Positions 45,208-61,804 are shown, counted from the stretch's first letter. The stretch: 64,000 bases of DNA from a virus (IMGVR_UViG_3300044624_002142:32001-96000); one strand, 5' to 3'. Program-made: numbers and translations. The notes: generated by a model from the letters alone, not told the origin.

Positions 45208-45208
45208 A

Positions 45209-45784
45209 TTAATTTCCAAAAAGTTTGTTGTCTCTTTCTTTAATCACTTCACTATATTTTTTAATGTTAGTATCAAAATTTGCTTCTTTTATTTTAAGCA
45301 AATCTTCAATAGTTTTTCCTGATGTAGTTGGTGTTGTAGTTGACTTGTTTATGTCAGTACTTCCAAATCCACCAACACCACGTTGAGTCGAATTCAAATC
45401 ATCAACCTCGATAAAACCTCCTACTGCGGTGCCACATCCTTCTATAATAATTTGAGCAATAGCGGTTTCTTTATCATCCTTAATAATTGGTAATTTAACG
45501 GGTTTATCACCTAGATTGATAAGGGCAACTAGTATTTCTCCACGATAGTCACTATCAATAACTCCTGCGAGAACATCGATACCGTACTTTACAGCAAGTC
45601 CGCTACGAGGTGCAACTCGACCATAAAAACCTTCTGGAATAGCTAATGCAATATCGGTCTTAAAAGCCTTACGTTCACCCGGCTTTAGTTCGTATGATTC
45701 TGTAGTATACAAATCATAACCAGCAGCACCAACGCTTCCTTTGTTAGGAATAACCGCTTTATCAGATAGTTTTTTTATATTCAT
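45209..45784 (-). CDS. dut: Trimeric dUTPase
   Basis: 'AGYDL','RSGLA','AGVIDSDYRGEI','AQ','RGVGGFGST'. Confidence 0.96.
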   Translation of the reverse strand: MNIKKLSDKAVIPNKGSVGAAGYDLYTTESYELKPGERKAFKTDIALAIPEGFYGRVAPRSGLAVKYGIDVLAGVIDSDYRGEILVALINLGDKPVKLPIIKDDKETAIAQIIIEGCGTAVGGFIEVDDLNSTQRGVGGFGSTDINKSTTTPTTSGKTIEDLLKIKEANFDTNIKKYSEVIKERDNKLFGN

Positions 45785-46752
45785 TCTATTTCCTTTTTTA
45801 CTTTTTCAATATCTATTTTTCCAAAATTAACTCCCATACAATTATCAGGTTGTGAGTGTCCAACGTGTTCTTTAGTGGTATGAATACTAAATGGATTACA
45901 TGGAATAAAGTTTTGTAATGTATAGTCCATTGCTTTAATCAATTCATTACACATATGTTTTGAATTTAATCCACCTTCGTTCAAAGCCCATTTACGACCT
46001 TCTTCACCACGTCGTATACGTTCTTCATTTGGGATTAGATACCAATACATCATTGCTTCAGCGATATCACGACAATCTACCATGTCGTCAAAAATATATG
46101 GAGTTTGATTACTTCCATGAGTATCCAATACCTTTGGCCAAATTGGCTTTGCCCAAACACCATGCTTCTTATACTTTCCAATGTTATTGGTAGCAAATTC
46201 CTTAGTAAATTCTACTGGGTTTCCATCATCATCCATTTGACCGATTTGATCTTGAAGTCCACCTGTTACATTAACAATTACAGGTGTTCCCGCCATAATT
46301 GATTCTGCAATACTCAGACCAAATCCCTCATTACTTGAAACATTAATTGTAACATCTGCCATATTGTACATTAAGTTCATGTCATTTGAACTAATTTTTT
46401 GGTTTGAAAAATAAACATCATAATCGTAACAAAGTGATTCTTTAACCGCTGGAAGATCTGTACCATGTCCAGCTTGACCAATAACTTCTGTATGAAGAAC
46501 CAAACAAACTTTTTTAGACTCTTCTTTTGGAAGACTATCGCAGAATATACGATATGCCAAAATTACATTTGATACTTGTTTGCGTTTGACATTACGACTA
46601 TTAAAAAATATAATGTAGTTATATTCATTACCCTTAAAGAATTTCTTTACACCTTCTGAAAAGATTTTATCTGTTTTTTCAATGGGTTTGAATACCTGAC
46701 TATTAATTCCATGAGGTACATAATGTAAAAGTGTTTTTCCTTTAACTGACAT
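45781..46752 (-). CDS. GT4 glycosyltransferase, C-terminal half
   Basis: 'YVPHGIN','RNVKRKQ','SSNEGFGLSIAES..GTPVIVNVTGGLQDQ'. Confidence 0.85.
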   Translation of the reverse strand: MSVKGKTLLHYVPHGINSQVFKPIEKTDKIFSEGVKKFFKGNEYNYIIFFNSRNVKRKQVSNVILAYRIFCDSLPKEESKKVCLVLHTEVIGQAGHGTDLPAVKESLCYDYDVYFSNQKISSNDMNLMYNMADVTINVSSNEGFGLSIAESIMAGTPVIVNVTGGLQDQIGQMDDDGNPVEFTKEFATNNIGKYKKHGVWAKPIWPKVLDTHGSNQTPYIFDDMVDCRDIAEAMMYWYLIPNEERIRRGEEGRKWALNEGGLNSKHMCNELIKAMDYTLQNFIPCNPFSIHTTKEHVGHSQPDNCMGVNFGKIDIEKVKKEIE

Positions 46753-46753
46753 A

Positions 46754-47305
46754 TTAAGCGTTCTCCTTTATGATATTACCGTTATTATCTAGATCACCAT
46801 AAATTGTGGTACAATTGTTTGGTCCTAATACCCACTTGTTAATATTGTATGTTTGTTTGCTAATGCTAAATAATGTATCACAACTTTCATAAAATGGTTT
46901 ATTCCACATAGGATATGGTAGATCATCCCAGATGTTTAAATATGTAAGAGGAATCTTCTTTCTAATTTCACGTTCAATCGCATATAACCATGTCCAATAA
47001 CGTGGATCGGTAAAATGCATTATTGCATCGGGATTTTCACGTGCCATAACAGCGTATAGAAAATCTTCATTACCATAACCGGATACTGGATACAAAACAA
47101 GAGATGCATCTTTGACGTTTGTACTTTTTTGTATTTCCTCACTTGCGTTAATTGATTTACCTTGATCCGGGTGATTTACTGCCCCTGCGATTTGTACCCA
47201 ATCATAATGGTGAATAGTTCCCATGATCAATTCACGACTCATAGTAGATACACCACTATGCATACGCATATCATCACTCAATAATAAAATTTTCTTTTTT
47301 GCCAT
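46754..47305 (-). CDS. GT4 glycosyltransferase, N-terminal half
   Basis: 'KILLLSDDMRMHSGV','PDAIMHFTDPR','YLNIWDDLP','ISKQT'. Confidence 0.75.
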   Translation of the reverse strand: MAKKKILLLSDDMRMHSGVSTMSRELIMGTIHHYDWVQIAGAVNHPDQGKSINASEEIQKSTNVKDASLVLYPVSGYGNEDFLYAVMARENPDAIMHFTDPRYWTWLYAIEREIRKKIPLTYLNIWDDLPYPMWNKPFYESCDTLFSISKQTYNINKWVLGPNNCTTIYGDLDNNGNIIKENA

Positions 47306-48557: not shown

Positions 48558-49313
48558 ATGAAAAATATAATATTCACGCTCTTGTTTGGCTTTAATGTTT
48601 ATGCTAATGGTGTTTTTTATGTTCAAAAAACAACAGGTGATGTTGTTTTAGAAAATGTGACAAATAATGTACTTTCAACGAATGCGCCGACCATTGGACA
48701 AACCTTTATGGTCAACGGTCAAAACTATGCATTTAAAACATCAACAAATTCGGATGTAACTGTGGCATTTTCAAATGATGTCTTTGTTAAAATTAAAGAA
48801 TCAACTCATATTACCGTTGATAACTTTGATCAAAGTTTCATTAATACAAATTCATTGCCCGAAAAGGCCAAGTATGAAACCTATTCCAAATCGGTATCGT
48901 TAATTGAAGGTGAACTTGATGTTTATTCCAATCAAGAAGGTAATTCTGAATCTATTGATAATATTAATACTAAACTTGCATCAATAATATTGTCAAAAGG
49001 TAAATTTGTAATACAGGCAGATGATCGAACCACGGTTATTATTATTCTTGATGGATCCGCTGTTATTTTAGACAATTATTCCAAACGAAAAGAAAATGTT
49101 AAAGCTGGTCAAACCGTGGTAATTGTTCCTGCTCCAAAGTTTCAAGGTCGTGGTGTTGAAACTATGAGACGTGGCAATATTTTTTCAATTAAAGAAACTG
49201 TAAATGGTGATGCTGAATCATATCTATTAGGTGTAAATTCGGTTGTTGATGCTTCTAAAAATGTTAGATTTTGTATAATAGATAAAACCATCCGTGGTAT
49301 TAAAATTAATTGA
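48558..49313 (+). CDS. Secreted FecR-domain-like protein
   Basis: Signal peptide; 'FKTSTNSDVTVAFSNDVFVKIKESTHITV','LIEGEL','INTKLASI','LDGSA','VKAGQ'. Confidence 0.65.
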   Translation: MKNIIFTLLFGFNVYANGVFYVQKTTGDVVLENVTNNVLSTNAPTIGQTFMVNGQNYAFKTSTNSDVTVAFSNDVFVKIKESTHITVDNFDQSFINTNSLPEKAKYETYSKSVSLIEGELDVYSNQEGNSESIDNINTKLASIILSKGKFVIQADDRTTVIIILDGSAVILDNYSKRKENVKAGQTVVIVPAPKFQGRGVETMRRGNIFSIKETVNGDAESYLLGVNSVVDASKNVRFCIIDKTIRGIKIN

Positions 49314-49581: not shown

Positions 49582-52125
49582 ATGTATCAAAACATTTATA
49601 TAGATAAGAAAACAGAAACAGTGCACCTTTGGGATGACCAGAAGGGACATGTTACATTTCCAGTTCCTAAGTATGCGTATCGTAAGAAGTCAGGTGGACG
49701 TTATCGTTCTGTTTACGGGGATGAACTAGAAAAGGTTACAAACTTTAACCGTAATGATCCTTCAATCTTTGAAGGTGATGTTCCTCCCGAAACACGGGTG
49801 TTGATTGACGCGTACGAAAACAGTGATGAACCGTCCAAAGGACATCGTATTGTCTTTTTTGACATTGAGGTTAGTTCCGAAGGTGGATTTCCCGTTATTG
49901 AGGAGGGTGATAAGGAACTCACCGCTATTGCTTTGTACGATAGTGCTACATCCAAGTACACGGCGTTTATTTTGGATAAAGATGGCAAACTTCAAGACAG
50001 TGAAACAACAGATACAAGTATTCAAAGTTTTGACAATGAGGAATCATTAATTAGTCATTTTATGAATAAGTGGGAGGAAATCCAACCCACGATTATTACT
50101 GGATGGAATATTGATGGGTTCGACGTTCCATATCTGTATAATCGTATCAAGAGAGTGATGGGTGCCAATTTTGCTAAAAGATTGAGTCCGATTCGGGAAT
50201 GTTATTATAATAACTTTGCAAAACGAATGGTTTTAGCTGGTATTTCATGTATGGACTATATTACATTGTATCAGAAGTTTAGTGGAAAAAATGAACCAAG
50301 TTATACTCTTGGTGCTATCGGTAAGAAGGTGGTCAATATCGACAAGATCACTTATACCGGAAGCCTTAATGATTTGTATCGTGATGACATTCAAAAGTAT
50401 ATTGAATACAACCTTAATGACGTTAAGATTGTGGTTGCTCTTGATAAGAAGTTACAATTCATTGATCTTGCTCGTCGTATCTGTCACACCGGGCATGTTG
50501 GTTATGAACAATTTGGAACTTCATCACGATACCTTGAAGGTGCCATATTGATGTATTTGCGTCGTCAAGGACGTGTTGCTCCGAATAAACCATTAGATGG
50601 ACGTGAAGAATATGAACAACAATTGGAAGACGGAGAAGAAGGATTTGAAGGTGCGTTTGTTAAACCTCCTGTGCCTGGTAGGTATGATTGGGTGTTTGAT
50701 TTGGATCTTACATCAATGTATCCGAATATCATTATTAGTCTTAACATTAGTCCTGAAACTAAAATAGCTAAAGTTGAAAACTGGAATGCAGAAGACTTTG
50801 TTCGTGGCAAGTTGACAGATGTAGTATTAAGCGGACAAAAGTATTCATCACAAGAATTCAGTGACATGTTGATTCAAAATAATCTTAGTGTCGCTAGTAA
50901 TGGAGCTGTCTATAAACTTCCAAAAGGAGACGGACAAGAAGGTACGATTCCTAGTATTTTGATCAAGTGGTTTAATGAACGTAAAGAAATGCGTAAGTTG
51001 GCCAAGAAGCACGCTGATGCAAAGGAATGGGAATTGTATGAGTTTTATGATCAACGTCAGAAAGTTCAAAAGATTTTGCTAAACTCCATTTATGGTTGTT
51101 TGGGTCTGCCAGTATTTCGATTTTATGATAAGGATAATGCTGAAGCAGTAACATTGAGTGGTGTCAGTATCATTAAGACTGCAAATATGGCCATCAACCA
51201 ATATTATAAGAATGTTCTTGGTGATGAAGCAAAAGGTAAGGATTATGTTATTTACGTTGATACCGATTCTTGTTTTACTAGTGCTTTGCCTATTATTAAG
51301 AAAACGATGCCTGACATTGATGTAAATGACGAAAAACAAATGACCGAAGCTATTCTGAAAGTTACTGCAGAAGCTCAAACATATGTTAACCAAATGTTTG
51401 ATATTATGGCTCTTCGATTATTTAACGTAAAACAACATCGTTTTGATGCAAAACAAGAAGTAATCGCCAAGTCGTCGTTTTGGTTGGCTAAGAAACGTTA
51501 TTGTCAGTTCATTATTAATAAGGGTGGGGTTGAATGTGATGAACTTGAGGTCAAGGGAATTGACGTGGTGAGAACATCCTTTCCTGCCAAGTTTAGAACT
51601 TTCATGAAACAATTCTTGATTGATTTGTTGAAAAACGTTGATCAAGAAACTATCAACAACAATATTCTTCAGTTTACAGAAGATATGAAGAACTTTGGAG
51701 TGATTGAACTTGCTAAAAATACAAGTGTGAAGTTCAAGAGCGAAAAGACTAAAGCTGATTATAATCCAAAGAGTCGTCAACCATTTCAGATTGTTTCTGG
51801 AACTCCTGCCCAAGTTAAGGCAGCGTTGTATTACAACGATTTGTTGGCACAGTTTAATTTGACCAAGATTATTCCTCCGATATTTCATGGTCAGAAAATT
51901 AAGTGGGTATATCTTAAACAGAATGAATATGGAATTGAATGTTTGGCGATGAAAGCAGATGGAACTGATCCTCAACAAATTATGGATATTATTACAAAAT
52001 ATATGGATCGTGATACTATGTATGAACAAGAGTTGAAGAGTAAACTTGTTGATTTCTATAAAGTTTTGAACTGGGAATATCCTAATTCAAACTGGAAAGC
52101 TGCATCTGCATTTTTTGAATTTTAA
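49582..52125 (+). CDS. Family B DNA polymerase (T4 gp43-like)
   Basis: ExoI 'FDIE', ExoII 'GWNIDGFD', ExoIII 'YNLND', 'DLTSMYP', 'KILLNSIYG', 'YVDTDS', 'KKRY'. Confidence 0.97.
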   Translation: MYQNIYIDKKTETVHLWDDQKGHVTFPVPKYAYRKKSGGRYRSVYGDELEKVTNFNRNDPSIFEGDVPPETRVLIDAYENSDEPSKGHRIVFFDIEVSSEGGFPVIEEGDKELTAIALYDSATSKYTAFILDKDGKLQDSETTDTSIQSFDNEESLISHFMNKWEEIQPTIITGWNIDGFDVPYLYNRIKRVMGANFAKRLSPIRECYYNNFAKRMVLAGISCMDYITLYQKFSGKNEPSYTLGAIGKKVVNIDKITYTGSLNDLYRDDIQKYIEYNLNDVKIVVALDKKLQFIDLARRICHTGHVGYEQFGTSSRYLEGAILMYLRRQGRVAPNKPLDGREEYEQQLEDGEEGFEGAFVKPPVPGRYDWVFDLDLTSMYPNIIISLNISPETKIAKVENWNAEDFVRGKLTDVVLSGQKYSSQEFSDMLIQNNLSVASNGAVYKLPKGDGQEGTIPSILIKWFNERKEMRKLAKKHADAKEWELYEFYDQRQKVQKILLNSIYGCLGLPVFRFYDKDNAEAVTLSGVSIIKTANMAINQYYKNVLGDEAKGKDYVIYVDTDSCFTSALPIIKKTMPDIDVNDEKQMTEAILKVTAEAQTYVNQMFDIMALRLFNVKQHRFDAKQEVIAKSSFWLAKKRYCQFIINKGGVECDELEVKGIDVVRTSFPAKFRTFMKQFLIDLLKNVDQETINNNILQFTEDMKNFGVIELAKNTSVKFKSEKTKADYNPKSRQPFQIVSGTPAQVKAALYYNDLLAQFNLTKIIPPIFHGQKIKWVYLKQNEYGIECLAMKADGTDPQQIMDIITKYMDRDTMYEQELKSKLVDFYKVLNWEYPNSNWKAASAFFEF

Positions 52126-52170
52126 TTTTTAATAATTTTTTATAAAAAAAATTTCATAGTTATATATCAA

Positions 52171-53070
52171 ATGAGTGATTTTACGTTTATAATTCAAGGA
52201 CCATACAACACTACACATTTATTGATGTTAGGTAACCTTAAAAAAGAAGGAAAAGTTGTTTTGTCATGTTACATGTCTGATTTAGATAAAATTTCTGACC
52301 CAAGTGTGTATGACATGATAATACTCAATGATATTATCGATACCAATATAGAGAAAATTTACAATTATGATAACGTATATCATCAAGTGAGATCCACGAA
52401 AAGAGCATTGTGTTCTATAAACACTGAATATGCTGTTAAGTTCAGATCTGACTCTTTTTATTCCGGAATACCATATGTAGTAGATTCTATAAGAAAAAAC
52501 TCAGAAAAGTTATCATGTGTGCCCATCAATATTAATCCAGTATGGCCATATCAGTTTTGTGACCATGTAATGGGTGGACGAACTAAAAATTTGAAGGATA
52601 CATTTGAAATAGCAGAGTCTATAATATTAACTCAAGACTTTATTTATGATGAAATTGATACTAGATTATGTCCTGTAGTATTACTTTTTGCATCTTGGCT
52701 TAAAAGTAAGAACATAAAAGGTGATGAACCTATATTTAGTTATTGGATTAAAGATTTTTATGGTACCGATCCTAGAATGGCATGGAGTCCAGACAACAAA
52801 ATAAGTGTTATGGTATATCAGAACTATTTTGATACTGTAGTAAATAACTTAAACATACTAGATATATATAATATGGAACCGTTTTTTGCTAAAAGCAACA
52901 CTGTTAAAAAAACATTCACTAAAGCAATAGATGCGATATCATGGCATGACAGTGTGTGTAAAACCGGACATAAAATGCGTGATATGAATTCATATATAAA
53001 AGCATTTTATGAATGTCATTCTGATAAAACTAAAAACTTTATTAAACCAGTAACACACTATATAAAATAA
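52171..53070 (+). CDS. WavE-like putative glycosyltransferase
   Basis: 'FIIQGP','NVYHQVRST','VKFRSD','DHVMGGRT'. Confidence 0.6.
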   Translation: MSDFTFIIQGPYNTTHLLMLGNLKKEGKVVLSCYMSDLDKISDPSVYDMIILNDIIDTNIEKIYNYDNVYHQVRSTKRALCSINTEYAVKFRSDSFYSGIPYVVDSIRKNSEKLSCVPININPVWPYQFCDHVMGGRTKNLKDTFEIAESIILTQDFIYDEIDTRLCPVVLLFASWLKSKNIKGDEPIFSYWIKDFYGTDPRMAWSPDNKISVMVYQNYFDTVVNNLNILDIYNMEPFFAKSNTVKKTFTKAIDAISWHDSVCKTGHKMRDMNSYIKAFYECHSDKTKNFIKPVTHYIK

Positions 53071-53073
53071 ACT

Positions 53074-54282
53074 ATGAATAAAAAAGTTATAAACGACATA
53101 GTATTGGTATCAAGTACAAATAATAACAACGGTAACATTGTCACATACGATGTTAAATCAAAAACTAATCTTTGGGATGCTGCATATGCAATTGCAGTTG
53201 GACAGAGTGTTGGTAATCCTGAAAAAAGATCTGAGTTTGAGTCTCGGGAATTGTTTGAAACGTATTGTGCAAAGATAATTGATACCAATAATTTTTCTGA
53301 AAAAGAAGGGTTGATTAATATCTATTATCCTGACAATAATTTCAACTACAAGGAAGATGGAATTACTCATTTCTTGACCACAATTATGGGTGGACAACTT
53401 GATATCGATATTATTCAGAAATGTCGAATTACAAATATTGAATTTTCAAAAGAGTTTGATCAGATATTCAATGGACCAAACTTGGGTCTAAAAGAAATGA
53501 GAAAATACTGTGGTGTAGATGAAAACTATCCTTTATTTGGCGGAATTATAAAGCCAAAAATTGGTTTGAATGTTAAAGATTATGTTGAGGTTGTAAAGAT
53601 TTACGCCGATAACGGATGTAACTTCATAAAAGAAGATGAAATTCTTTCCAATCAGTCATTTTGTTCTATAGAAAAACGACTTGAGAAGATTGGTGATTAT
53701 CTCAGAACTAATAACATCAAAATGGTATATGCACCATCTATAACTTGTGATCATTTATATTTAGAGGATCGTATTCGTAAAGTACATAACTTAGGTATCA
53801 ACGGACTTCATATCAACATTCATAGCGGATATGGTGCGTATAAAATGGTTAAGGATTTAAGATTGAATTTGTATCTTCATTATCAAAAGAGCGGAGATAA
53901 GATGTGGACAAATCCTCAACACAATTATTCTATCGACGAATCTGTTTTGTTTGAGATCGCAAGTCGATGTGGATGTTCTACTCTTCATGTTGGTATGATT
54001 GGTGGATATTTGGATAGTGATGAAGATAGTTTGGTTCGAACAATTAATAAGTTAGTATCATTAAATTCTGTTTCAGCATTGAGTTGTGGAATGCATCCCG
54101 GATTGGTTCAATATATTATTAATAAGTTGGGCCATTGTAATTGGATGGCTAACGTTGGTGGCGCTATATCGTCACATCCGATGGGGAGTGCAGCTGGAGT
54201 TCGTGCAATGAAACAGTCGATTTCTGGAGAACATGGTAAGGAATATCGTAATGCAATTAAAACATGGGGACTTAAATCTTGA
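53074..54282 (+). CDS. RuBisCO-like protein (form IV, RLP)
   Basis: 'GGIIKPKIGL','FIKEDEIL','LHVG','SCGMHPG','VGGAISSHPMGSAAGVRAMKQ'. Confidence 0.92.
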   Translation: MNKKVINDIVLVSSTNNNNGNIVTYDVKSKTNLWDAAYAIAVGQSVGNPEKRSEFESRELFETYCAKIIDTNNFSEKEGLINIYYPDNNFNYKEDGITHFLTTIMGGQLDIDIIQKCRITNIEFSKEFDQIFNGPNLGLKEMRKYCGVDENYPLFGGIIKPKIGLNVKDYVEVVKIYADNGCNFIKEDEILSNQSFCSIEKRLEKIGDYLRTNNIKMVYAPSITCDHLYLEDRIRKVHNLGINGLHINIHSGYGAYKMVKDLRLNLYLHYQKSGDKMWTNPQHNYSIDESVLFEIASRCGCSTLHVGMIGGYLDSDEDSLVRTINKLVSLNSVSALSCGMHPGLVQYIINKLGHCNWMANVGGAISSHPMGSAAGVRAMKQSISGEHGKEYRNAIKTWGLKS

Positions 54283-54284
54283 GT

Positions 54285-55001
54285 ATGAATGTTGTTATAC
54301 CAGCTGCTGGATTGGGTACTAGGTTTAATACCACAATTCCAAAACCATTGTTGGATGTTAATGGATTGCCGATGTTAGCTAGAGTTATAAATAACTTTTA
54401 TAATAGTGATGTAAAGTTTTTTGTATGTATTCTTAAAGAACATCAACAGAAATTTAATATTATAGATAATGTAAAAGACTACTGTGATACATCGATGGTT
54501 AAATATTTTATTATTGATGAACTGACAGATGGGCCGGCAAGAACATCATATTTTTCAAAACCACATATTAATATTAATGAACCGTTGATTATAACAAACT
54601 GTGATCAGGTTATTTTTGACTTAGACTTAAATCGATTGATGTCTTTTGCCGAAAAGAATTCGGCAGATGGTGTACTTGGTACGTTTTATTCAAATAGTCC
54701 TAAAAACAGTTACGTTAGACTAAATGATGACGGATTAATTACACAAGTTAAAGAAAAAGAAGTAATAAGTAATTATGCTACCAATGGTCTTCATTTTTGG
54801 ACAAAAGGATCTTCTTTCTTTGATTCGTGTGATGAAATGTTTTCACGAAACGACAGATCAAACAATGAGTTTTATGTTGCACCAAGTTATAACTATATGA
54901 TAAAAAAAGGAATGAAAGTAGTTCAGTATTTTTTCAATGAACACTTTCCTATTGGAATACCACAAGATTTAGATAAATTTAGAAAGTTAAATTATATATG
55001 A
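54285..55001 (+). CDS. Sugar-phosphate nucleotidyltransferase-like protein
   Basis: 'VIPAAGLGTRF..PKPLLDV','TDGPA','NCDQ','EKEVIS..AT.G','NNEFYVAP','GIPQDL'. Confidence 0.85.
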   Translation: MNVVIPAAGLGTRFNTTIPKPLLDVNGLPMLARVINNFYNSDVKFFVCILKEHQQKFNIIDNVKDYCDTSMVKYFIIDELTDGPARTSYFSKPHININEPLIITNCDQVIFDLDLNRLMSFAEKNSADGVLGTFYSNSPKNSYVRLNDDGLITQVKEKEVISNYATNGLHFWTKGSSFFDSCDEMFSRNDRSNNEFYVAPSYNYMIKKGMKVVQYFFNEHFPIGIPQDLDKFRKLNYI

Positions 55002-55633
55002 ACAAACAATTACAAAATGATTTTGTACGATACACTTCCAATGGACAATTGATTCTATCCGAATACCACTGCGGTCCCGGATCTACGTTATGGTATACAC
55101 GTCCTATTAGAAGTGTATTTGTAGAGTTTTTAAAAAAACACAATATTAACAGTATGTTAGATGCTCCATGTGGAGATCATCAATGGATGAGTTTAATAAA
55201 GTTCCCAAATGAATTTGATTATATTGGAGGAGATCTTCATGAAGATATGATTTCTAGAAATAACAATATATATGGAAACAAATTTATTCAACTTGATATT
55301 ACCGAAGATCAATTACCTTCAAAAGATTTGATTTTTGTGAGAGATTGTTTGTTTCATCTTACCGATGATATGAAAAGAAAGTTTTTTAGTAATTTATTGA
55401 AAACAGACTTTAAGTTTTTACTTACATCAAATCATCCAAGATGTAATATTAATGTTCCTAATATTATAAACGGTGAAACGTTTCAAGAAATTAATTGGAA
55501 TATTTCCCCTTGGAATTTCCCAACTCCAATTGATACTATCGTGGATTATAATGAATCTGATGATAGATTTAATCCATATCCATATCGAACAATGGAACTT
55601 TGGTCTAAAGAACAACTCGAAACAATTTTATAA
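54998..55633 (+). CDS. Class I SAM-dependent methyltransferase
   Basis: 'GPGSTL','MLDAPCGD..W','YIGGD','DLIFVRDCLFHL'. Confidence 0.8.
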   Translation: MNKQLQNDFVRYTSNGQLILSEYHCGPGSTLWYTRPIRSVFVEFLKKHNINSMLDAPCGDHQWMSLIKFPNEFDYIGGDLHEDMISRNNNIYGNKFIQLDITEDQLPSKDLIFVRDCLFHLTDDMKRKFFSNLLKTDFKFLLTSNHPRCNINVPNIINGETFQEINWNISPWNFPTPIDTIVDYNESDDRFNPYPYRTMELWSKEQLETIL

Positions 55634-55638
55634 ATGAT

Positions 55639-55965
55639 ATGCGAGTATTTGATTCTAAACCATTTATGGATAAAGGTGGTTGGTTTATTGGAGATTTTGA
55701 ACCAACAGTGTTTAAAACCACATCATTTGAGGTATCATATAAACTTCATCATAAAGGAGAAGATTGGCCAAAACACTATCATAAGATAAGTGAAGAAATA
55801 AACTTTCTAATTCGTGGAAAAATGACTATTAATAATACAGTTATTGATGCAGGAACCATATTTATCATTGACAGATATGAATCTGTAAAACCTATATTCT
55901 TAGAAGATTGTGAACTAATTGTTGTAAAGGTTCCATCTTCAAAGAATGACAAATACGAAAATTAA
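55639..55965 (+). CDS. Cupin-fold protein
   Basis: 'GWFIGDFEP','HYHKISEE','GKM','VVKVPS'. Confidence 0.75.
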   Translation: MRVFDSKPFMDKGGWFIGDFEPTVFKTTSFEVSYKLHHKGEDWPKHYHKISEEINFLIRGKMTINNTVIDAGTIFIIDRYESVKPIFLEDCELIVVKVPSSKNDKYEN

Positions 55966-55967
55966 TT

Positions 55968-56600
55968 ATGTTTACGATAGATCAAAATTTATATACTCAG
56001 ACCCCATCCAATATCAATGGACTTTCTTATCTTCCATCTTTCAAAAATGAAGCTGATAACGATGTTGATTGGCCAGGACATATTGCACCATTTAATGAAA
56101 TTATAGAGGAAATCACTGATGCTAATAAAGAAGCATTGGATGATATATTGAGTAAGGTTAATGTAAAAAATGTTATTGAAATTGGTATTGCTCGTAATAA
56201 TAAAAGATCGTTTACTACACAATTACTTTACGCCAAAAAAGGTATTTATTGTGGTATTGATCTTGATGACAAGACTTTTTTGAATGATGATTTGAATCGT
56301 GTATACACAATCAAAGCTAATTCACATGATCAGGTAAATATACGTTCTTATTTAAATACCATCGGACTTCATAAGTGTTCAGTGTTGTTTATCGATGGAT
56401 GGCATTCAGTGAATACTGTTATTAATGACTGGACATATACTGACTTACTTGATGATAAAGGTGTAGTTATTTTTCATGATACTAACTATCATCCGGGACC
56501 AAATCTTGTTGTACCAGCAGTTGATCGATCTATGTATAGAGTTGTAAAGTATTGTGATGGAGGATCTGATTGGGGTATTGCTGCCGCATACAAACTGTGA
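55968..56600 (+). CDS. Class I SAM methyltransferase (Methyltransf_24-like)
   Basis: 'VIEIG','GIDL','FIDGWHS','GVVIFHDT'. Confidence 0.8.
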   Translation: MFTIDQNLYTQTPSNINGLSYLPSFKNEADNDVDWPGHIAPFNEIIEEITDANKEALDDILSKVNVKNVIEIGIARNNKRSFTTQLLYAKKGIYCGIDLDDKTFLNDDLNRVYTIKANSHDQVNIRSYLNTIGLHKCSVLFIDGWHSVNTVINDWTYTDLLDDKGVVIFHDTNYHPGPNLVVPAVDRSMYRVVKYCDGGSDWGIAAAYKL

Positions 56601-56626
56601 AGGATCTAATATTACAAAATTAGTTT

Positions 56627-57388
56627 ATGAATATAGCAATTATCATTTCTGGAAGAATAGATTTGTTTGAACAATCAGTTTTTGAAAATTATAATAATAT
56701 AATTAATCCATTAATTAACAATGGACACACAGTAAATATTTTCATGTCTATATGGAATCATCATGATCAAGATATGTTGTTAAGAGCATATCAACCATAT
56801 GTAAAAGTTTTTGATACTGAAACTTTTACTGATTATACAGCTGGATTGATAAAGGATATGGTTCCGTATGAAATTCTTGTAAAGTTATTTGGTCATTCTG
56901 AAGAAAATAAAGTTTCTAATACACTATACTGGATGTATAAATTAAAGCGTGCATATAAATTTGTAAAGGAATATGAACGTGTTAATAATATTGAACATGA
57001 TTTGTACATTCGATTAAGACCCGATGTAACATGTTGTGATCCTATTGATATACATCAACTTACTACGTTGAATGATTCATCAATTATAGTTCATGTAGAT
57101 CACATTTTGGTAAAAGATGATAAATTTTATGGATGTGGAGAAGGTTGGATCGATGATAATTTATGTATTGCAAAACAACGACCATTTGAAACATTTTGTA
57201 ATACATATGACGATATAATAAATTTATGTTTAATGACCGGATCTTGTATATCACATATATTGTTACAAAAACAATTTGAATTAAATAATATAAAAACAAT
57301 AAGACCTAATTCTCCATTAATTATTTATCGAAAAGGTGATATTAATAATCCTGTTTTAAAATTTTATCATTTTGAACATTGTTATTAA
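56627..57388 (+). CDS. Putative glycosyltransferase-like protein
   Basis: 'IAIIISGRI','IFMSIW','YIRLRPD','DDNLCIA' pattern of glycan-locus proteins. Confidence 0.5.
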   Translation: MNIAIIISGRIDLFEQSVFENYNNIINPLINNGHTVNIFMSIWNHHDQDMLLRAYQPYVKVFDTETFTDYTAGLIKDMVPYEILVKLFGHSEENKVSNTLYWMYKLKRAYKFVKEYERVNNIEHDLYIRLRPDVTCCDPIDIHQLTTLNDSSIIVHVDHILVKDDKFYGCGEGWIDDNLCIAKQRPFETFCNTYDDIINLCLMTGSCISHILLQKQFELNNIKTIRPNSPLIIYRKGDINNPVLKFYHFEHCY

Positions 57389-57398
57389 ATGTACTTTT

Positions 57399-58766
57399 AT
57401 GATAAAATTAATTGTTTTTGATTTAGACGGTGTTTTGGTTGAAACTAAAAAACTTCACTATGATGCTTTAAATAAAGCGTTACGTGATGTCGATCCAAAG
57501 TATGAGATTTCATACGATGAACATCTTGCTAAGTATGATGGACTTAGTACTCATAAAAAATTAGATTTACTTGGTCGTGAAAAAGGATTATCTGGAATGG
57601 AGTTTGAAAGTGTATGGTTTCGTAAACAAGTATACACCTCACAAATGTTACGTGAATTGACTCCGGATACAAGACTTATAGAAGTTCTCCGAAAGTTAAA
57701 ACAAAAATATACTATTGCTGTTGCTAGCAATAGTATTCGTGATAGTGTTAAAATAACTCTACTAAAGTTGGGGTTATTGGAATACGTTGATTTTTATTTG
57801 TCTAATGAAGATGTAAAACATCCAAAACCACATCCTGAGATCTATTTGAGATCAATGATTCAATCAGGTGCAACACCAAAAGAAACCATTATAATTGAAG
57901 ATAGTGTTATTGGACGTAATGCTGCAAACAATAGTGGTGCTTATTTACTGGGAGTAAATAATCCAACAGATGTAACGTATGAAAATATTACGGAACATAT
58001 AGATTGTATCAATAAAAATACTAAAAGACCAAAATGGCAAGGAGGAAAAATGAATGTTTTAATACCAATGGCAGGCGCAGGTAGTCGATTTGAAAAGGCT
58101 GGATATACATTTCCTAAACCTTTGATTGATGTACGTGGAAAGCCCATGATTCAATGGGTAGTTGACAATTTGAACGTAGACGCCAAGTATATTTTTATTG
58201 TTCAGAAAAGTCATTTTGAAAAGTACAACCTTAAAGATACACTTGATAATTTCTGTCCAAATAATAAAATTGTTCAGATTGAAGGAATTACCGAAGGTGC
58301 TGCTTGTACGACACTATTAGCAAAACAATATATTAATAAGGATGAACCTTTGATTATTGCCAACAGTGATCAATTTGTTGAGTGGAATAACGAAGAGTTT
58401 ATTTATACATCTACCACTGGAGATTTAGATGGTAATATTCTTACGTTTAAATCTACACACCCCAAGTGGAGTTATGCAAAAATCAATGAATTAGGATATG
58501 TGACTGAAGTTGCTGAAAAACGTCCTATAAGTGATATTGCGACTGTAGGCATATACTATTGGAGAAAGGGCAGTGACTATGTTAAGTATGCTGAACAAAT
58601 GATTCAAAAGAACATTCGTGTCAACAATGAATTTTATGTGTGTCCGGTCTTCAATGAAGCCATTTCTGACGGTAAAAAGGTTCGTACATTTAATATTGAA
58701 AAGATGTGGGGTCTTGGAACCCCTGAAGATTTAGAAAATTTTTTAAAAAATTACGAAAAACATTAA
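57399..58766 (+). CDS. HAD phosphatase fused to sugar nucleotidyltransferase
   Basis: N-terminal 'FDLDGVL','ASNS','KPHPEIY','IEDS'; C-terminal 'IPMAGAGSRF..PKPLI','NSDQ','NNEFYVCP','GTPEDL'. Confidence 0.88.
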   Translation: MIKLIVFDLDGVLVETKKLHYDALNKALRDVDPKYEISYDEHLAKYDGLSTHKKLDLLGREKGLSGMEFESVWFRKQVYTSQMLRELTPDTRLIEVLRKLKQKYTIAVASNSIRDSVKITLLKLGLLEYVDFYLSNEDVKHPKPHPEIYLRSMIQSGATPKETIIIEDSVIGRNAANNSGAYLLGVNNPTDVTYENITEHIDCINKNTKRPKWQGGKMNVLIPMAGAGSRFEKAGYTFPKPLIDVRGKPMIQWVVDNLNVDAKYIFIVQKSHFEKYNLKDTLDNFCPNNKIVQIEGITEGAACTTLLAKQYINKDEPLIIANSDQFVEWNNEEFIYTSTTGDLDGNILTFKSTHPKWSYAKINELGYVTEVAEKRPISDIATVGIYYWRKGSDYVKYAEQMIQKNIRVNNEFYVCPVFNEAISDGKKVRTFNIEKMWGLGTPEDLENFLKNYEKH

Positions 58767-58768
58767 AT

Positions 58769-59557
58769 ATGCTCGGTGATTTTACATTTATAATTCATGG
58801 AAATTATGATGAAACGCACATTCCTATGTGTGCCGAATTAAAACGATTTGGTAAAGTCATATTATCGACCAATAAAAAATATATGGACCATGTTTCACAA
58901 CATGCAAATCATTATGATAAAATAATATGTGAATCGGATATAGATGTTACCAATATATACAATCATCAGAATATCTATCTTCATATCAACTCAGTATTAA
59001 ATGGATTGCGTCAGTGTGATACTCAATATGTTGTAAAAGTTAGAACAAATCATTGTTATTCAAATATTCAATATCTTGTAAATAAAGTAAGATCAAATAT
59101 AAATGATAAATATTTGTGTAGTAATATTGCTGTAAATCCAGAATTTCCATATCATCCATGTGATAATATTATTGCTGGAACTAAAGAATTGGTTTTTTCT
59201 ATATACAAAACAGCTTATAGTAGTATATTAGCTGAAGATTTTATATATCAAGACAATGATATACGAATGTGTGCTGAAGTTTTATTGTTCATTTCATATC
59301 TTAAATATAAAAACATTAAAATAAATAAAATCAATGGAAACTCATATTTTTATGTTGATGGTATAAGAAATGGTATGGTAATTCATGGTTACATTAGTGA
59401 TCAATACAGATCTATAATGAAAGAAAATTTAGAATTAATTGACGTTGAGAATTTAGCACCATATGTTATAAATTTTAATAGTCATACATTTGATGTTATT
59501 TTTAGAAATATTAAAAATGTGGATGAACTATTAAGTAAAACAAATTTGAACTTTTAA
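58769..59557 (+). CDS. WavE-like protein, paralog of 52171..53070
   Basis: Aligns by eye: DFTFII.G.Y..TH, GKV.LS, IYN..N.Y, VK.R, NP..PY..CD, R.C..V.LF.S.LK. Confidence 0.6.
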   Translation: MLGDFTFIIHGNYDETHIPMCAELKRFGKVILSTNKKYMDHVSQHANHYDKIICESDIDVTNIYNHQNIYLHINSVLNGLRQCDTQYVVKVRTNHCYSNIQYLVNKVRSNINDKYLCSNIAVNPEFPYHPCDNIIAGTKELVFSIYKTAYSSILAEDFIYQDNDIRMCAEVLLFISYLKYKNIKINKINGNSYFYVDGIRNGMVIHGYISDQYRSIMKENLELIDVENLAPYVINFNSHTFDVIFRNIKNVDELLSKTNLNF

Positions 59558-59573
59558 GTAAAACGAATTGTGT

Positions 59574-60035
59574 ATGAAATACATCTCTCATAGAGGCAAT
59601 CTAAGTGGTCCAAATTCAGACAAAGAAAATCATCCCGATTATATTAAAAAAGCATTAAAATTGGATTATGATGTTGAAATTGACGTGTGGTATACTGATG
59701 AAAAGTGGTATTTGGGACACGATAGTCCAACGTATCAAGTAAAATATGATTTTCTAACAGATCGAAGATTTTGGTTACATGCCAAAAATGGTGATGCATT
59801 TAATTTGTTGGTACAAGACTATACAGTAAATGTATTTTGGCATACCACTGAAGATTGGGTTTTAACCAGCAAGAGATTTATATGGACGTATCCTGGCAAG
59901 CAATTATATCCTGAAAGTGTGTGTGTTTTGCCAGAACACTCATGGGTGGGAGATCTTACAAAATGCCACGCAGTATGTACTGACTTTGTAAAAGAATTTC
60001 CAGAACAGTTTGAGGAAGAATACTGGATAAATTAA
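59574..60035 (+). CDS. GDPD/PLC-like phosphodiesterase
   Basis: 'ISHRGN','EN','DVEIDVW','LGHD','WLHAKN','VCTD'. Confidence 0.75.
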   Translation: MKYISHRGNLSGPNSDKENHPDYIKKALKLDYDVEIDVWYTDEKWYLGHDSPTYQVKYDFLTDRRFWLHAKNGDAFNLLVQDYTVNVFWHTTEDWVLTSKRFIWTYPGKQLYPESVCVLPEHSWVGDLTKCHAVCTDFVKEFPEQFEEEYWIN

Positions 60036-60036
60036 G

Positions 60037-60065
60037 TGGACAAATCAAGGTAGGTAGAATATAGT
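60037..60065 (+). promoter_or_regulatory. sigma70-like promoter of the clamp operon
   Basis: TGGACA-17nt-TATAGT. Confidence 0.5.
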
Positions 60066-60086
60066 GTGAGGAACAATTAAAAAGTT

Positions 60087-60830
60087 ATGACAAAGACAAA
60101 TCTACAAAAATTCATTAACAAATACTCTCTTAATGGAGAGGTACCATCAGTCAAGTGGAACGTTTCCGCTAAAAACAAGCAACTCAGTTTGAGTGCTATT
60201 ACTAACGATAAGAGTTTGATTTATGACGTTACTTGGAAGAACGTTGAAGAATTGAACGCCGAATATGAGATCGGTGTTTATGACACTGACAAGTTGCAGA
60301 AGATGTTGAAGGCTCTAGGTGAAGAAATTACCATGACCGTCAATGAAACTGATGGACGGGTTACATCTCTTTCATTCTCCGATGGAACATCTGAAATTCA
60401 GTTTATGACCGCTGAATTGACAGTAATTCCCAAGTCTTCTCGTCTCAAGTCTACACCTCCATATCATTTTGAAATTGATCTTACAGAGGAATTTATCGCT
60501 AAGTATCGTAGTGCGAAGGATGCTCTTTCTGAAGAGAGTAAGTTTACATTGTTGATGAACAAGAAGAGTAAGAAGGTTCAGTTGGTTCTTGGCTATGCTT
60601 CAATCAATAGTAACCGTGTTACTTTGGATGTTCCTATCAAGGATGGAACAGCTAAGTTGGAAAAGCCTTTGAATTTCAACGCTGATTTCTTCAAGTCGGT
60701 GTTGGATGCAAACAACGAGTGTGAAAATGCTGTGTTGAAGGTGTCTGAAGCCGGATTGGCGTCAGTTGAATTTAATACTGATACATTTTCTGCTACGTAT
60801 CACTTTGGTCCGGTCCAACCTAACGAATAA
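60087..60830 (+). CDS. DNA sliding clamp (gp45/PCNA-like)
   Basis: 247 aa, 'EIGVYD..KL', 'LNFNADFF','LKVSEAGLASVEF'; directly upstream of clamp loader. Confidence 0.75.
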   Translation: MTKTNLQKFINKYSLNGEVPSVKWNVSAKNKQLSLSAITNDKSLIYDVTWKNVEELNAEYEIGVYDTDKLQKMLKALGEEITMTVNETDGRVTSLSFSDGTSEIQFMTAELTVIPKSSRLKSTPPYHFEIDLTEEFIAKYRSAKDALSEESKFTLLMNKKSKKVQLVLGYASINSNRVTLDVPIKDGTAKLEKPLNFNADFFKSVLDANNECENAVLKVSEAGLASVEFNTDTFSATYHFGPVQPNE

Positions 60831-60835
60831 TTCAT

Positions 60836-61804
60836 ATGGATGCCTTTTTTGAAGAGGTGAGTCATACCGACGATAAGAAGGTTCATAGTTTGTGGGTTGA
60901 AAAGTATCGACCCACAATTATTGAAGATTATATCGGAAATGAAAACATCATAACCACAATTAAGAGTTATATTGACCAGCAGAACATTCCACATTTGATG
61001 TTGTATGGCGGTGCTGGTACTGGAAAGACAACGTTGGCTAAACTGTTGACTAAACAGATCAACTGTGATGTATTGTATATCAACGCATCTGATGAAAATA
61101 AGGTTGAGAATGTTCGAACCAAGATTAAGAGTTTTGCATCATGTGTGGGTATCAAACCGCTGAAGATTATTATTCTGGACGAGTGTGATTATATGTCACC
61201 AGAGGCACAAGCGGCTCTTCGTAACCTTATGGAGACGTTTAGTATGTCTACGAGGTTTATTCTGACATGTAACTATCATGAGAAGATGATTCTTCCCATT
61301 GTATCACGTTGTATGACCTTTGAGATTGCTCCGATGACTAAGGTTTCGGTTGCGGTACATTTGACTAAGATTCTTAAGTCAGAAAACGTTGAATATCAGA
61401 ATGATGATTTGGCGTATATCGTAAACACATATTATCCGGATATTCGTAAGATTATTAATGTGGCACAACAATCTACTTTTGAAGGTAAGTTGAAGGTTAA
61501 TAAGGATTCTTCGTTGAAAACTGACACACATCAAAAGTTGGTGGACATGATTAAGAATGGTATTGGTAAGCCAAATGCCTTTAATGATATTCGACAATTT
61601 GTTGTGGATCAGCGTATCAAAGTGTATGATGATTATTTCTCAGTGTTGTATCAGAAGGTTGATGATTATGCTAATGGTAAGCAGGCAATAGCTACGATTA
61701 TTATCTCTGAGTATATGTATCAATGTAGTTTGTTGATTCCTCCATTGAAAGAAATTGCTTTGATGGCATGTATTAGTAAACTTTTAACAGATTTGAGAAA
61801 ATGA
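60836..61804 (+). CDS. Clamp loader ATPase (gp44/RFC-like)
   Basis: 'LWVEKYRP','GGAGTGKT','INASDE','ILDECD','AQAALRNLME','SRC','PDIR'. Confidence 0.95.
   Translation: MDAFFEEVSHTDDKKVHSLWVEKYRPTIIEDYIGNENIITTIKSYIDQQNIPHLMLYGGAGTGKTTLAKLLTKQINCDVLYINASDENKVENVRTKIKSFASCVGIKPLKIIILDECDYMSPEAQAALRNLMETFSMSTRFILTCNYHEKMILPIVSRCMTFEIAPMTKVSVAVHLTKILKSENVEYQNDDLAYIVNTYYPDIRKIINVAQQSTFEGKLKVNKDSSLKTDTHQKLVDMIKNGIGKPNAFNDIRQFVVDQRIKVYDDYFSVLYQKVDDYANGKQAIATIIISEYMYQCSLLIPPLKEIALMACISKLLTDLRK

Follow-up and report, generated by a model that had tools for sequence, protein, structure and literature searches.

Proteins of the RuBisCO fold are known from carbon fixation, from the salvage of methionine and of methylthioadenosine (MTA), and from the catabolism of sugar acids. 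In methionine salvage, MtnW (YkrW) is the 2,3-diketo-5-methylthiopentyl-1-phosphate enolase and shares its pathway with the HAD-family enzyme MtnX and the cupin MtnD; the DeepYkr RuBisCO-like protein (RLP) of Rhodospirillum rubrum is a 5-methylthio-ribulose-1-phosphate isomerase, which operates with a cupin methylsulfurylase in the MTA-isoprenoid shunt. Here, we describe a viral RLP whose gene lies in an island of ten genes on a 64,000-nt stretch of viral DNA (IMGVR_UViG_3300044624_002142:32001-96000), which in its entirety is referred to as the window. The RLP is accompanied by a sugar-phosphate nucleotidyltransferase (NT), a small cupin and a compact GDPD-like phosphodiesterase (mini-GDPD), and it is this set of four genes that recurs around related RLPs.

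Systems to which the partners can be compared are known from phosphocholine (LicC/LicD), from CDP-ribitol (TarI/TarJ, and ISPD with FKTN-FKRP) and from the route that leads from CDP-xylulose to CDP-arabinitol (AbpA/AbpB), and nucleotidylation of a pentulose 5-phosphate has precedent. ManC/AlgA-type proteins are bifunctional NT-cupin enzymes, acting as type II phosphomannose isomerase (PMI) and GDP-mannose pyrophosphorylase. Phages mainly use surface glycans as receptors, and in SAR11 these glycans are hypervariable.

The original prediction made from the window's sequence knew of no characterised viral RLP or RLP-dependent glycan pathway. Viral RLPs as such had already been published, with their function left open, as far as the available text of Jaffe et al. 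2019 goes (Jaffe, Castelle, Dupont and Banfield, Mol Biol Evol, PMC6389311). That text describes some 80 'IV-like' RLPs from phages alongside sequences of Beckwithbacteria, the phage homologues (some of them from Myoviridae) being highly divergent, devoid of conserved catalytic residues and grouping with Beckwithbacteria, and calls their function unclear. New branches of RuBisCO homologues were also noted in the part of the Global Ocean Sampling paper available. The literature search returned no paper tying an RLP to an NT/cupin/GDPD cassette or to glycan synthesis; the supplements of Jaffe et al. may show gene maps.

A four-gene cassette conserved around the RLPs

The neighbourhoods of viral RLPs were assessed for the best 80 of at least 275 confirmed loci, 60 of which carry at least 5 kb on both sides, and partners were counted within 5 kb of the RLP. 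An NT was present in 59 of these 60 full-flank loci, a mini-GDPD in 55 and a cupin in 50, and all three occurred together in 46. GDP-mannose-4,6-dehydratase (GMD)-like genes were found in 26, a 3,4-dihydroxy-2-butanone-4-phosphate (DHBP) synthase in one and LicD in none. Among the first 16 viral loci, tblastn located an NT in 15, a cupin in 15, a mini-GDPD in 13 and a HAD-NT fusion in two; L004 ends within the RLP, L014 ends in it as well, and L016 is without mini-GDPD. The locus sets (the first 16 viral loci, the RLP census and the mini-GDPD census described below) share contigs and are not independent samples, and counts based on clusters of open reading frames (ORFs) are lower bounds, the ORF caller having missed genes that tblastn saw (the GDPD in L013, the cupin and the GDPD in L053).

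In addition, the partners are found fused to one another. An RLP-NT fusion (P0124), two RLP-NT-cupin fusions (P0270 and P0271), an NT-cupin fusion (L016:7815-8873) and a mini-GDPD-RLP fusion that is cut at the contig end (P0180) were recovered. Each of the three partners is thus joined to the RLP on a single polypeptide in at least one fusion, which is the strongest evidence that the four proteins act in one pathway. The conserved module consists of these four genes only, and both methyltransferases, the WavE-like genes and the HAD-NT fusion are variable accessories. The linkage of cupin and GDPD to the RLP had been anticipated correctly by the original prediction; its view of all ten genes as one conserved pathway was too broad, since the WavE-like, methyltransferase and HAD-NT genes vary among near relatives, and the HAD linkage that it proposed did not hold, a HAD gene lying near the RLP in just 6 of the 60 viral loci. 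In the relatives L002 and L003 (PolB ~94% identical), a differently composed island occupies the same place.

The cassette is not confined to viruses. A scan of cellular genomes, with one genome per species, yielded 59 loci, 51 of them encoding an RLP at 33-51% identity and eight a RuBisCO relative at 25-30% identity. An NT match was found beside the RLP in 47 of the 51 clade loci, compared to none of the eight with distant relatives, and of the four clade loci without NT three are on short or truncated contigs and only L026 is full-flanked. The predicted RLP-NT linkage is hence recurrent and clade-specific, and the outcome named as speaking against it, namely that the closest homologues would lie in methionine-salvage or catabolic operons with no conserved link to these genes, was not observed: the link to the NT is conserved and the neighbours are glycan genes. 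Among the carriers are isolates, namely three type strains of Legionella, Nonomuraea rosea and Azospirillum oleiclasticum, as well as a Pelagibacter with a complete chromosome (L024), numerous SAR11 single amplified genomes (SAGs), a complete metagenome-assembled genome (MAG) of a verrucomicrobium, Patescibacteria including a Beckwithbacteria MAG, and Woese-, Nano- and Micrarchaeota. The Beckwithbacteria-labelled locus L028 (42% identity) has the same cassette, and one of the best 80 viral loci, with a clade RLP (44% identical), comes from a contig of 172 kb whose record is that of a giant-virus MAG (L210, GVMAG-S-3300013094-109_000001, 93271-110461).

The genes surrounding the cassette point to glycan synthesis. 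In viral loci, GDP-mannose-4,6-dehydratase-like proteins, FkbM and TylF methyltransferases, glycosyltransferases of the GT2 and GT10-like families and UDP-GlcNAc 2-epimerase were found, and in cellular loci GMD-like SDRs, GT2, GT17 and full-length GDPDs. The locus on the Pelagibacter chromosome is flanked by GT9, 2-hydroxyacid dehydrogenase and CTP_transf_3 genes, and one SAR11 SAG contig has a GT61 gene and the housekeeping gene LepA near the RLP. DPANN loci lack the mini-GDPD and contain a full-length, Pfam-positive GDPD (5e-23) that is cross-matched by the mini-GDPD profile. Four Legionellales loci (L061, L063, L065 and L066) comprise RLP and NT only, without GDPD, and have a LicD-family ORF cluster 267-2171 nt away; in L063 the LicD protein (Pfam 7.4e-43) is encoded 586 nt from RLP and NT. 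These four loci are related and count as one observation, in which LicD may take the place of GDPD.

When the mini-GDPD was taken as the starting point, a broader picture emerged. It is far commoner than the RLP, with at least 579 viral stretches, the best 80 of which were analysed within the same 5 kb; 47 had full flanks. Of these, 46 contained an NT, 27 a HAD gene, 18 a cupin and 10 an RLP, in the combinations NT with HAD (25 loci), NT with RLP and cupin (10), NT with cupin (6), NT alone (3), NT with cupin and HAD (2) and none (1). NT and mini-GDPD thus form a broader invariant core. HAD together with RLP and cupin was seen in none of the 47 loci, and RLP plus cupin on the one hand and HAD on the other look like alternative feeders of this core. 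The cultured cyanophage S-CAM9 encodes a HAD-NT fusion and a mini-GDPD (41% identical) with neither RLP nor cupin; in the cultured Synechococcus phage S-SKS1 (L017:6007-7434) a homologue of the NT shares one polypeptide with DHBP synthase (PF00926, 5.4e-65), and a stand-alone DHBP synthase lies inside an RLP cassette at L190:10523-11143. DHBP synthase also starts by enolising a ribulose phosphate on Mg, and in S-SKS1 and L190 it may feed the NT rather than riboflavin synthesis.

Active site of the RLP and folds of its partners

The window's RLP belongs to the RuBisCO large-chain superfamily, as both Pfam domains exceed their gathering scores (PF00016, 6.5e-28, 98.3 bits with a cut-off of 30.1; PF02788, 1.3e-5, 25.8 bits with a cut-off of 20.7). 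Among all NCBIfam RuBisCO and RLP models, none reached its cut-off and all scores were far below: the best was form III TIGR03326 (150.4 bits vs 497), and others were NF003252 (138.5 vs 438), the MtnW model NF007095 (124.6 vs 409), NF010002 (104.5 vs 489), NF042437 for OiaX, the 3-oxo-isoapionate-4-phosphate decarboxylase of apiose catabolism (98.2 vs 700), and the second MtnW model TIGR03332 (98.1 vs 513.6). The closest solved relative is the form III enzyme of T. kodakarensis (5e-31). Exhaustive searching across 1.84 billion representatives yielded 723 matches at E <= 0.001, 41 of them at E <= 1e-30; no match was obtained by tblastn against 50,697 GenBank phage records, and the relatives came from IMG/VR and metagenomes. 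In a FastTree phylogeny of 114 sequences of at least 330 aa, out of 154 selected, 25 sequences formed one monophyletic clade with a support of 0.995; the clade also takes in the Parcubacteria-named protein P0077. The deeper placement of this clade is unsupported (parent node 0.0), and the ten nearest RLPs outside it all fall below every NCBIfam cut-off, leaving the clade without a named neighbour.

Being phage-borne, grouping with Beckwithbacteria and divergent at catalytic residues, the clade agrees in description with the published 'IV-like' phage/Beckwithbacteria group (PMC6389311), a likeness to which the Beckwithbacteria-labelled L028 and the Parcubacteria-named P0077 add. The two accounts differ in that the available text of that paper holds no neighbourhood or fusion analysis, whereas here the clade is tied to the NT/cupin/mini-GDPD cassette and also extends to records labelled SAR11, Legionella, Actinomycetota, Verrucomicrobiota and DPANN.

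The active site was compared at the positions in the clade's alignment. K175, K177, K201, D203, E204, S379, G381 and G403 are kept in all 25 clade representatives, and H327 and G404 in 23 each, H327 being replaced by Gln in the other two. By contrast, E60G, H294Q and K334Y are present in 25 of 25, and residue 295 is Lys in 18 and Arg in seven. The position of N123 falls on G106 of the window's RLP in the HMMER alignment and on Q107 in the MAFFT alignment, neither of which is Asn. The RLP therefore lacks the complete carboxylase residue set, which we take to be E60, N123, K175, K177, K201, D203, E204, H294, H327 and K334 in spinach numbering. To judge from the alignment, the Mg-carbamate centre and both phosphate sites with their phosphate-binding glycines are kept, and the residues for CO2 addition are replaced in a fixed way. 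This combination speaks for conserved chemistry of the enolase or isomerase type, unlike the known ones.

Three further fusion proteins were encountered in the RLP searches, all outside the phage clade. P0177 (583 aa) combines an N-terminal TIR domain (TIR_2, 3.3e-13) with an entire protein of the RuBisCO family, which shares 26% identity with the window's RLP and has Phe at the K201 position; the fusion hints at a defence- or signalling-linked RLP. In P0151 and P0154, a domain of the IF-2B family (PF01008, the family of ribose-1,5-bisphosphate isomerase) is fused to a RuBisCO that matches bona fide enzymes at the catalytic positions with sound alignment columns, and these two are, judging by their residues, nucleotide-salvage pairs on a single polypeptide.

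The NT (54279-55001 with the alternative start) matches PF00483 with 39.6 bits (cut-off 21.2) and phrog_3980 at 4.7e-52; its best PDB match is the NDP-sugar pyrophosphorylase 4evw, and over its full length it is most like nucleotidyltransferases for anomeric sugar 1-phosphates (AglF, GlmU, HddC, RmlA). The second NT domain of the island resides in the HAD-NT fusion (57372-58766), with 39.9 bits for PF00483 (4.7e-10; cut-off 21.2) and 102.8 bits for HAD_2 (3e-29; cut-off 23.8); the HAD part also matches the beta-phosphoglucomutase-like model TIGR02009 at 3.9e-29 (102.2 bits, under the cut-off of 153) and has an 'FDLDGV' motif. PF00483 enzymes carry an N-terminal G-x-G-x-R nucleotide loop, and the corresponding stretches in the two proteins read 'PAAGLGTRF' and 'PMAGAGSRF'. 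In the NT tree, the stand-alone protein (54285-55001) groups with viral NTs that are linked or fused to a cupin, and the NT domain of HAD-NT with the RLP-fused NT of P0124 and the RLP-abutting NTs of SAR11 and DPANN. The HAD-NT protein is 56% identical to that of cyanophage S-CAM9.

The cupin has only a weak Cupin_7 match in Pfam, and its place in the superfamily is established by the motif and the double-stranded beta-helix fold. H37, H46, H48, E53 and G60 (H46-x-H48-x4-E53-x6-G60) are invariant in 13 sequences, the AlphaFold2 (AF2) model has a pLDDT of 88.2, and Foldseek returned 191 PDB matches at E <= 0.001, whose top rows are of the cupin fold, small monocupins. The fold matches are generic small cupins, including the archaeal PMI of Thermococcus (7zvm, TMq 0.71); Pfam gave no match to MannoseP_isomer or to ARD, and no ARD is among the listed Foldseek matches.

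The mini-GDPD has no Pfam match and is shorter than the full-length barrel of PF03009 (~240 aa). However, the catalytic motif HRG..EN..ExD..HD is intact, with H6, R7, E18, E35, D37, H49 and D50 invariant in 11 sequences, and its profile matches the solved Pyrococcus GDPD 7e0v (E 0.0039), the invariant residues aligning to the motif stretch. The AF2 model (pLDDT 93.3) gave weak Foldseek matches (1.9e-3), and VIA-align placed GDPDs at the top (Z 10.2-7.4), including the GDPD domain of phage K gp155. With 7e0v itself (Z 10.2, rmsd 3.8 A), 145 of the 153 residues could be aligned and span residues 12-252 of that enzyme, which identifies the protein as a compacted GDPD. VIA-align also returned 1xx1, with a Z of 6.6. 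A complex prediction for RLP and mini-GDPD scored 0.00 and weighs neither way.

Proposed pathway and competing explanations

The island can be described as a phage glycan or sugar-donor island built around the four-part cassette. The data show which genes are present, which folds and motifs their products have, that carboxylase residues are lost, that the linkage is specific to the clade, that fusions occur and that the surroundings are glycan genes; from this we infer the chemical steps below together with their order, substrate, nucleotide and acceptor. It is probable that the RLP enolises or isomerises a ketose phosphate and that the NT activates the product for decoration of a glycan. The RLP would perform the first half-reaction of RuBisCO only, abstracting a proton from a ketose phosphate or an NDP derivative, and the resulting enediolate would be reprotonated or undergo elimination. 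Its product would be an epimer, an isomer with a shifted carbonyl or a deoxy-diketone, and each of these three outcomes is known either as a side reaction of RuBisCO or as the main reaction of a described RLP. The cupin would isomerise or otherwise process this product further, the NT would couple its phosphate to a nucleoside monophosphate (NMP) to form the activated donor, and the mini-GDPD, or LicD in Legionellales, would carry out phosphodiester chemistry (transfer, cyclisation or hydrolysis) on the donor or the transfer product. The variable genes, namely two methyltransferases, two WavE-like genes, the DUF7796-like gene and HAD-NT, could then modify the unit and attach it to a glycan of the virion or of the host surface. 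The more detailed chemistry of the original prediction, with a ketose (bis)phosphate as substrate, trimming of the phosphate by HAD and GDPD and transfer by the WavE-like proteins, is likewise conjectural.

Two versions of this scheme are considered. The donor could be an NDP-aldose for glycosyl transfer, with the cupin as a PMI-like isomerase, the HAD as a mutase and a GMD-like dehydratase downstream, as suggested by the likeness of the NT to sugar-1-phosphate enzymes, the PMI-like cupin fold, the beta-phosphoglucomutase-like HAD and the GMD neighbours. ManC/AlgA enzymes resemble this arrangement in the NT-then-cupin order of L016 and P0270/P0271, in the PMI-like cupin fold and through the GMD-like neighbours, but the present cupin lacks a MannoseP_isomer match and the ManC/AlgA system includes neither RLP nor GDPD. 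Alternatively, the donor could consist of a ketose phosphate or polyol phosphate in NDP-linked form, with transfer as a phosphodiester, to which LicD, GDPD and the NT-DHBP synthase fusion point. The phospho-alcohol systems share with it a GT-A-fold nucleotidyltransferase acting on a non-anomeric phosphate and transfer by a LicD-family protein, here seen beside RLP and NT in L063; however, enzymes of the RuBisCO fold, cupins and GDPD-like proteins have no part in any of them, and the present NT is closer to sugar-1-phosphate enzymes.

Several observations weigh against the proposed scheme. The clues to the donor type conflict, as the NT indicates an anomeric sugar 1-phosphate and LicD, GDPD and the DHBP synthase fusion a non-anomeric phosphate. 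In 37 of the 47 mini-GDPD loci the NT/mini-GDPD cassette is without RLP, which makes the RLP an optional feeder rather than the heart of that cassette. The cupin was called in only 7 of 29 cellular clade loci (ORF calls, a lower bound), with a second NT instead, so its role is not universal. Glycan islands are mosaic, and neighbourhood alone cannot assign a step. Finally, several of the 'cellular' MAG and SAG loci could be viral or mis-binned, though the isolates and complete chromosomes are not.

More tentatively, and with a probability well short of even, the clade may represent an undescribed reaction of the RuBisCO superfamily that serves biosynthesis by enolising or rearranging a phosphorylated pentulose or hexulose, the product of which is nucleotidylated and installed, possibly as a phosphodiester via mini-GDPD or LicD, as an unrecognised substituent of surface glycans in SAR11 bacteria, which rank among the most abundant in aquatic habitats, in Legionella, in DPANN/CPR episymbionts and in their viruses, with RLP plus cupin, HAD and DHBP synthase as interchangeable feeders of one NT/phosphodiesterase core. 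Biosynthesis of an activated glycan unit would, if true, give the much-studied RuBisCO fold a new functional class, and a cassette for a rare substituent shared by phage and host would bear on host range and on the strain-level diversity of aquatic bacteria. The clade is large, with cultured carriers in Legionella, Nonomuraea and Azospirillum, which makes the role of the phage RLPs testable by enzymology and glycan analysis.

The position of the island inside a replication module (PolB and an RFC-like gene, with a DnaB-like helicase and ribonucleotide reductase upstream), which is kept in L002 and L003, would also suit a cassette that supplies a sugar donor for hypermodification of the phage DNA (glycosylated bases) instead of a surface glycan, the location then serving co-expression with replication; the virus record moreover encodes a ThyA-family protein with a large insertion. 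We nevertheless regard this as unlikely, since the same cassette occurs in chromosomal glycan loci (complete Pelagibacter, Legionella isolates) near LicD, GT9 and GT61, since the ThyA-like protein keeps the Asn of 'PYNI', which we take to mark dUMP rather than dCMP enzymes, and since a DNA glycosyltransferase and a base hydroxymethylase were not found. A similarly low probability is given to a free small molecule as the end product, whereby nucleotidylation of the RLP product by the NT would be followed by cyclisation or cleavage of the donor by the GDPD-like protein, with release of NMP, yielding a cyclic phosphate for host takeover, signalling or counter-defence. The logic of nucleotidylation followed by cyclisation has a precedent in IspD/IspF, and some phosphodiesterases of the GDPD superfamily act as cyclases, as does sphingomyelinase D, whose family is represented among the fold matches of the mini-GDPD by 1xx1. 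NT and mini-GDPD are in addition the most invariant pair, the GDPD catalytic motif is intact, and the GDPD-RLP and RLP-NT fusions suggest a closed metabolic sequence. Yet glycosyltransferase, methyltransferase and GDP-mannose-dehydratase-like neighbours recur, LicD, of a family of phospho-group transferases, may replace GDPD in Legionellales, and no kinase or receptor-like partner was seen.

Two functions familiar from other RuBisCO homologues were considered and rejected on model scores, residues and partners. A route like methionine salvage or the MTA shunt would cast the RLP as an MtnW enolase or DeepYkr isomerase, the HAD as an MtnX phosphatase and the cupin as an ARD dioxygenase or methylsulfurylase, together recycling by-products of S-adenosylmethionine (SAM). 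The trio of folds is indeed that of MtnW/MtnX/MtnD and the RLP/cupin pair that of R. rubrum, an MtnW model is the third-best NCBIfam match of the RLP, and the island has several SAM-dependent methyltransferases. The MtnW system also resembles the present one in using the carbamate-Mg centre of an RLP for enolisation only, and the R. rubrum shunt in a carbonyl-shifting RLP isomerase followed by a cupin, its product 1-deoxyxylulose 5-phosphate later meeting the nucleotidyltransferase IspD. Such a route is nonetheless very improbable here: the MtnW models remain far below cut-off, the HAD is rare near RLPs and beta-phosphoglucomutase-like, with no MtnX among the 25 listed of 48 NCBIfam matches, the cupin shows no ARD match, and no MtnA-, MtnB- or MtnK-like gene was named in Pfam scans of recurrent neighbour clusters and of one Legionella and one Pelagibacter locus. 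The invariant partner, the NT, has no role in such routes, there is no sign of MTA-derived substrates, and the context with its GDPD is that of glycan rather than mtn genes. A working form III-like RuBisCO that fixes CO2 in nucleotide salvage, as in archaea and CPR bacteria, has a practically negligible probability. Its best models and structures are those of form III, but the score is less than a third of the cut-off, H294Q, K334Y and E60G are fixed in the clade, no IF-2B/ribose-1,5-bisphosphate isomerase or AMP phosphorylase partner is present, and the true form III-type IF-2B fusions (P0151/P0154) keep the catalytic residues and lie outside the clade.

Layout of the island and its surroundings

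The ten genes of the island, as called in the window, are co-oriented and tightly packed, as had been predicted (Table 1). Neighbouring genes overlap by up to 4 nt (54998/55001) or are up to 26 nt apart (56600/56627), and the TGA stop of the RLP (54280-54282) is separated by the predicted 2 nt from the ATG of the NT at 54285.

Table 1. Genes of the island in window coordinates
Feature	Position	Strand	Basis and remarks
WavE-like protein 1, 299 aa; putative transferase, variable accessory	52171..53070	+	Pfam WavE 18 bits, below cut-off 27
RLP (P0001), 402 aa	53074..54282	+	PF00016, PF02788; phage 'IV-like' clade
Sugar-phosphate nucleotidyltransferase NT, 'NT-A' branch, 238 aa	54285..55001	+	PF00483; alternative TTG 54279
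Methyltransferase 1, 211 aa; variable accessory	54998..55633	+	phrog_3382 7.3e-38; Methyltransf_25 weak
Small metal-binding monocupin, 108 aa	55639..55965	+	HxHx4E motif, AF2, Foldseek; core partner in viral loci
Methyltransferase 2, 210 aa; variable accessory	55968..56600	+	Methyltransf_24 22.7 bits, below cut-off 26.3
'c5'/DUF7796-like protein, 253 aa; putative glycan transferase	56627..57388	+	phrog_13607 5e-11
HAD (beta-phosphoglucomutase-like)-NT fusion, 'NT-B' branch, 455 aa	57399..58766	+	HAD_2 + PF00483; alternative TTG 57372
WavE-like protein 2, 262 aa; variable accessory	58769..59557	+	Pfam WavE 20 bits, below cut-off 27
Mini GDPD-like phosphodiesterase, 153 aa	59574..60035	+	GDPD motif, profile, AF2, VIA-align; alternative TTG 59568

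The island had been placed between PolB and the sliding clamp. PolB (49582-52125) was confirmed upstream, but the supposed clamp (60087-60830) has no Pfam match and no credible PDB sequence match, and its family, phrog_12062, is of unknown function; it is followed by an RFC-like AAA gene (clamp-loader-like) at 60836-61804. The window also codes for a PD-(D/E)XK nuclease and, upstream of the island, a DnaB-like helicase and the large subunit of ribonucleotide reductase. The IMG/VR virus record measures 126,384 bp at 34% G+C, with a CheckV completeness of 40%, and carries no tRNA genes or end repeats. The nearest PolB among GenBank phages is that of Microcystis phage Mel-JY01 (44.7% identity). 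Near-identical DNA was detected in 20 lake-water metagenome DNA runs (at least 64% of sampled words), eight of which may be the source, and the sequencing-run search listed no RNA run carrying window sequence. Between 49000 and 61000, 73 promoter-like sites were counted compared to 72.4 expected, and eight terminator-like sites compared to 4.0 expected (standard deviation 2.2); no operon boundaries were drawn from these counts.

Contigs from four other lake metagenomes match the flanks of the island, and several break or diverge at around 52106-52140 and 59650-59900. Loose contig ends at ~52106-52140 were seen in three of four DNA runs (contigs only), which suggests that strains diverge just past the PolB stop. 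There is also a weak indication that the island varies between strains, as this fits the contig breaks near the PolB stop and the mini-GDPD gene. One low-depth contig joins 52139 to 59649, but with one side of only 24 letters it is too weak to claim an island-free variant, and the X18 bins without cover (52472-52905 and 59850-60283), coming from contigs only, were given no weight.

Of the gene identities proposed for the island, those of the RLP, the NT and HAD-NT are firm, and those of methyltransferase 1 (through its PHROG family, annotated as 'methyltransferase'), the cupin and the GDPD-like protein are backed beyond Pfam, whereas the WavE-like pair and methyltransferase 2 stay below cut-off and the glycosyltransferase-like gene at 56627-57388 rests on a language-model lead. 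That lead, to 'capsular polysaccharide biosynthesis protein'/DUF7796 clusters, scored 0.97; Pfam, a profile search of the PDB and hhalign against the WavE-like gene gave nothing for this protein. In 33 of the 60 full-flank viral loci, a member of the DUF7796-like family is encoded no more than 5 kb from the RLP. The WavE-like proteins are true paralogues of each other (36% identity, BLASTP E 1e-44); the ORF cluster of the first (c171) was found in the window only, among 17 viral loci, and neither the WavE-like genes nor methyltransferase 1 had a tblastn match in the 16 viral loci, in which homologues of methyltransferase 2 were seen in L002, L003 and L008.

Elsewhere in the window, the minus-strand ORFs 43888-45219 and 45781-46752 match phrog_2170, annotated as 'glycosyltransferase', and form one ORF cluster with 46754-47305 that recurs in 7 of 17 viral loci. 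They lie within a minus-strand block at ~34-48 kb of lower G+C and reversed skew, and this phage may thus possess another group of glycan genes. Directly upstream of PolB, on the plus strand at 48558-49313, a 251-aa protein with a FecR domain is encoded (PF04773, 3e-5, barely over the cut-off); it is conserved in L003 and L004, and the domain is an odd one for a phage replication module. Outside the window, the ThyA-family ORF of the virus record (403 aa, G000:C1:109886-111052, minus strand; PF00303, 1.1e-80) has a long internal insertion and 'ACH' in place of the usual 'PCH', and ThyX was not found. The contig itself starts, at G000:C1:1-200, in a long run of imperfect 9-nt repeats of the GGTAC(A/T)TC(A/G) type, which looks like part of a collagen-like or Gly-Thr-Ser repeat protein, perhaps a fibre.

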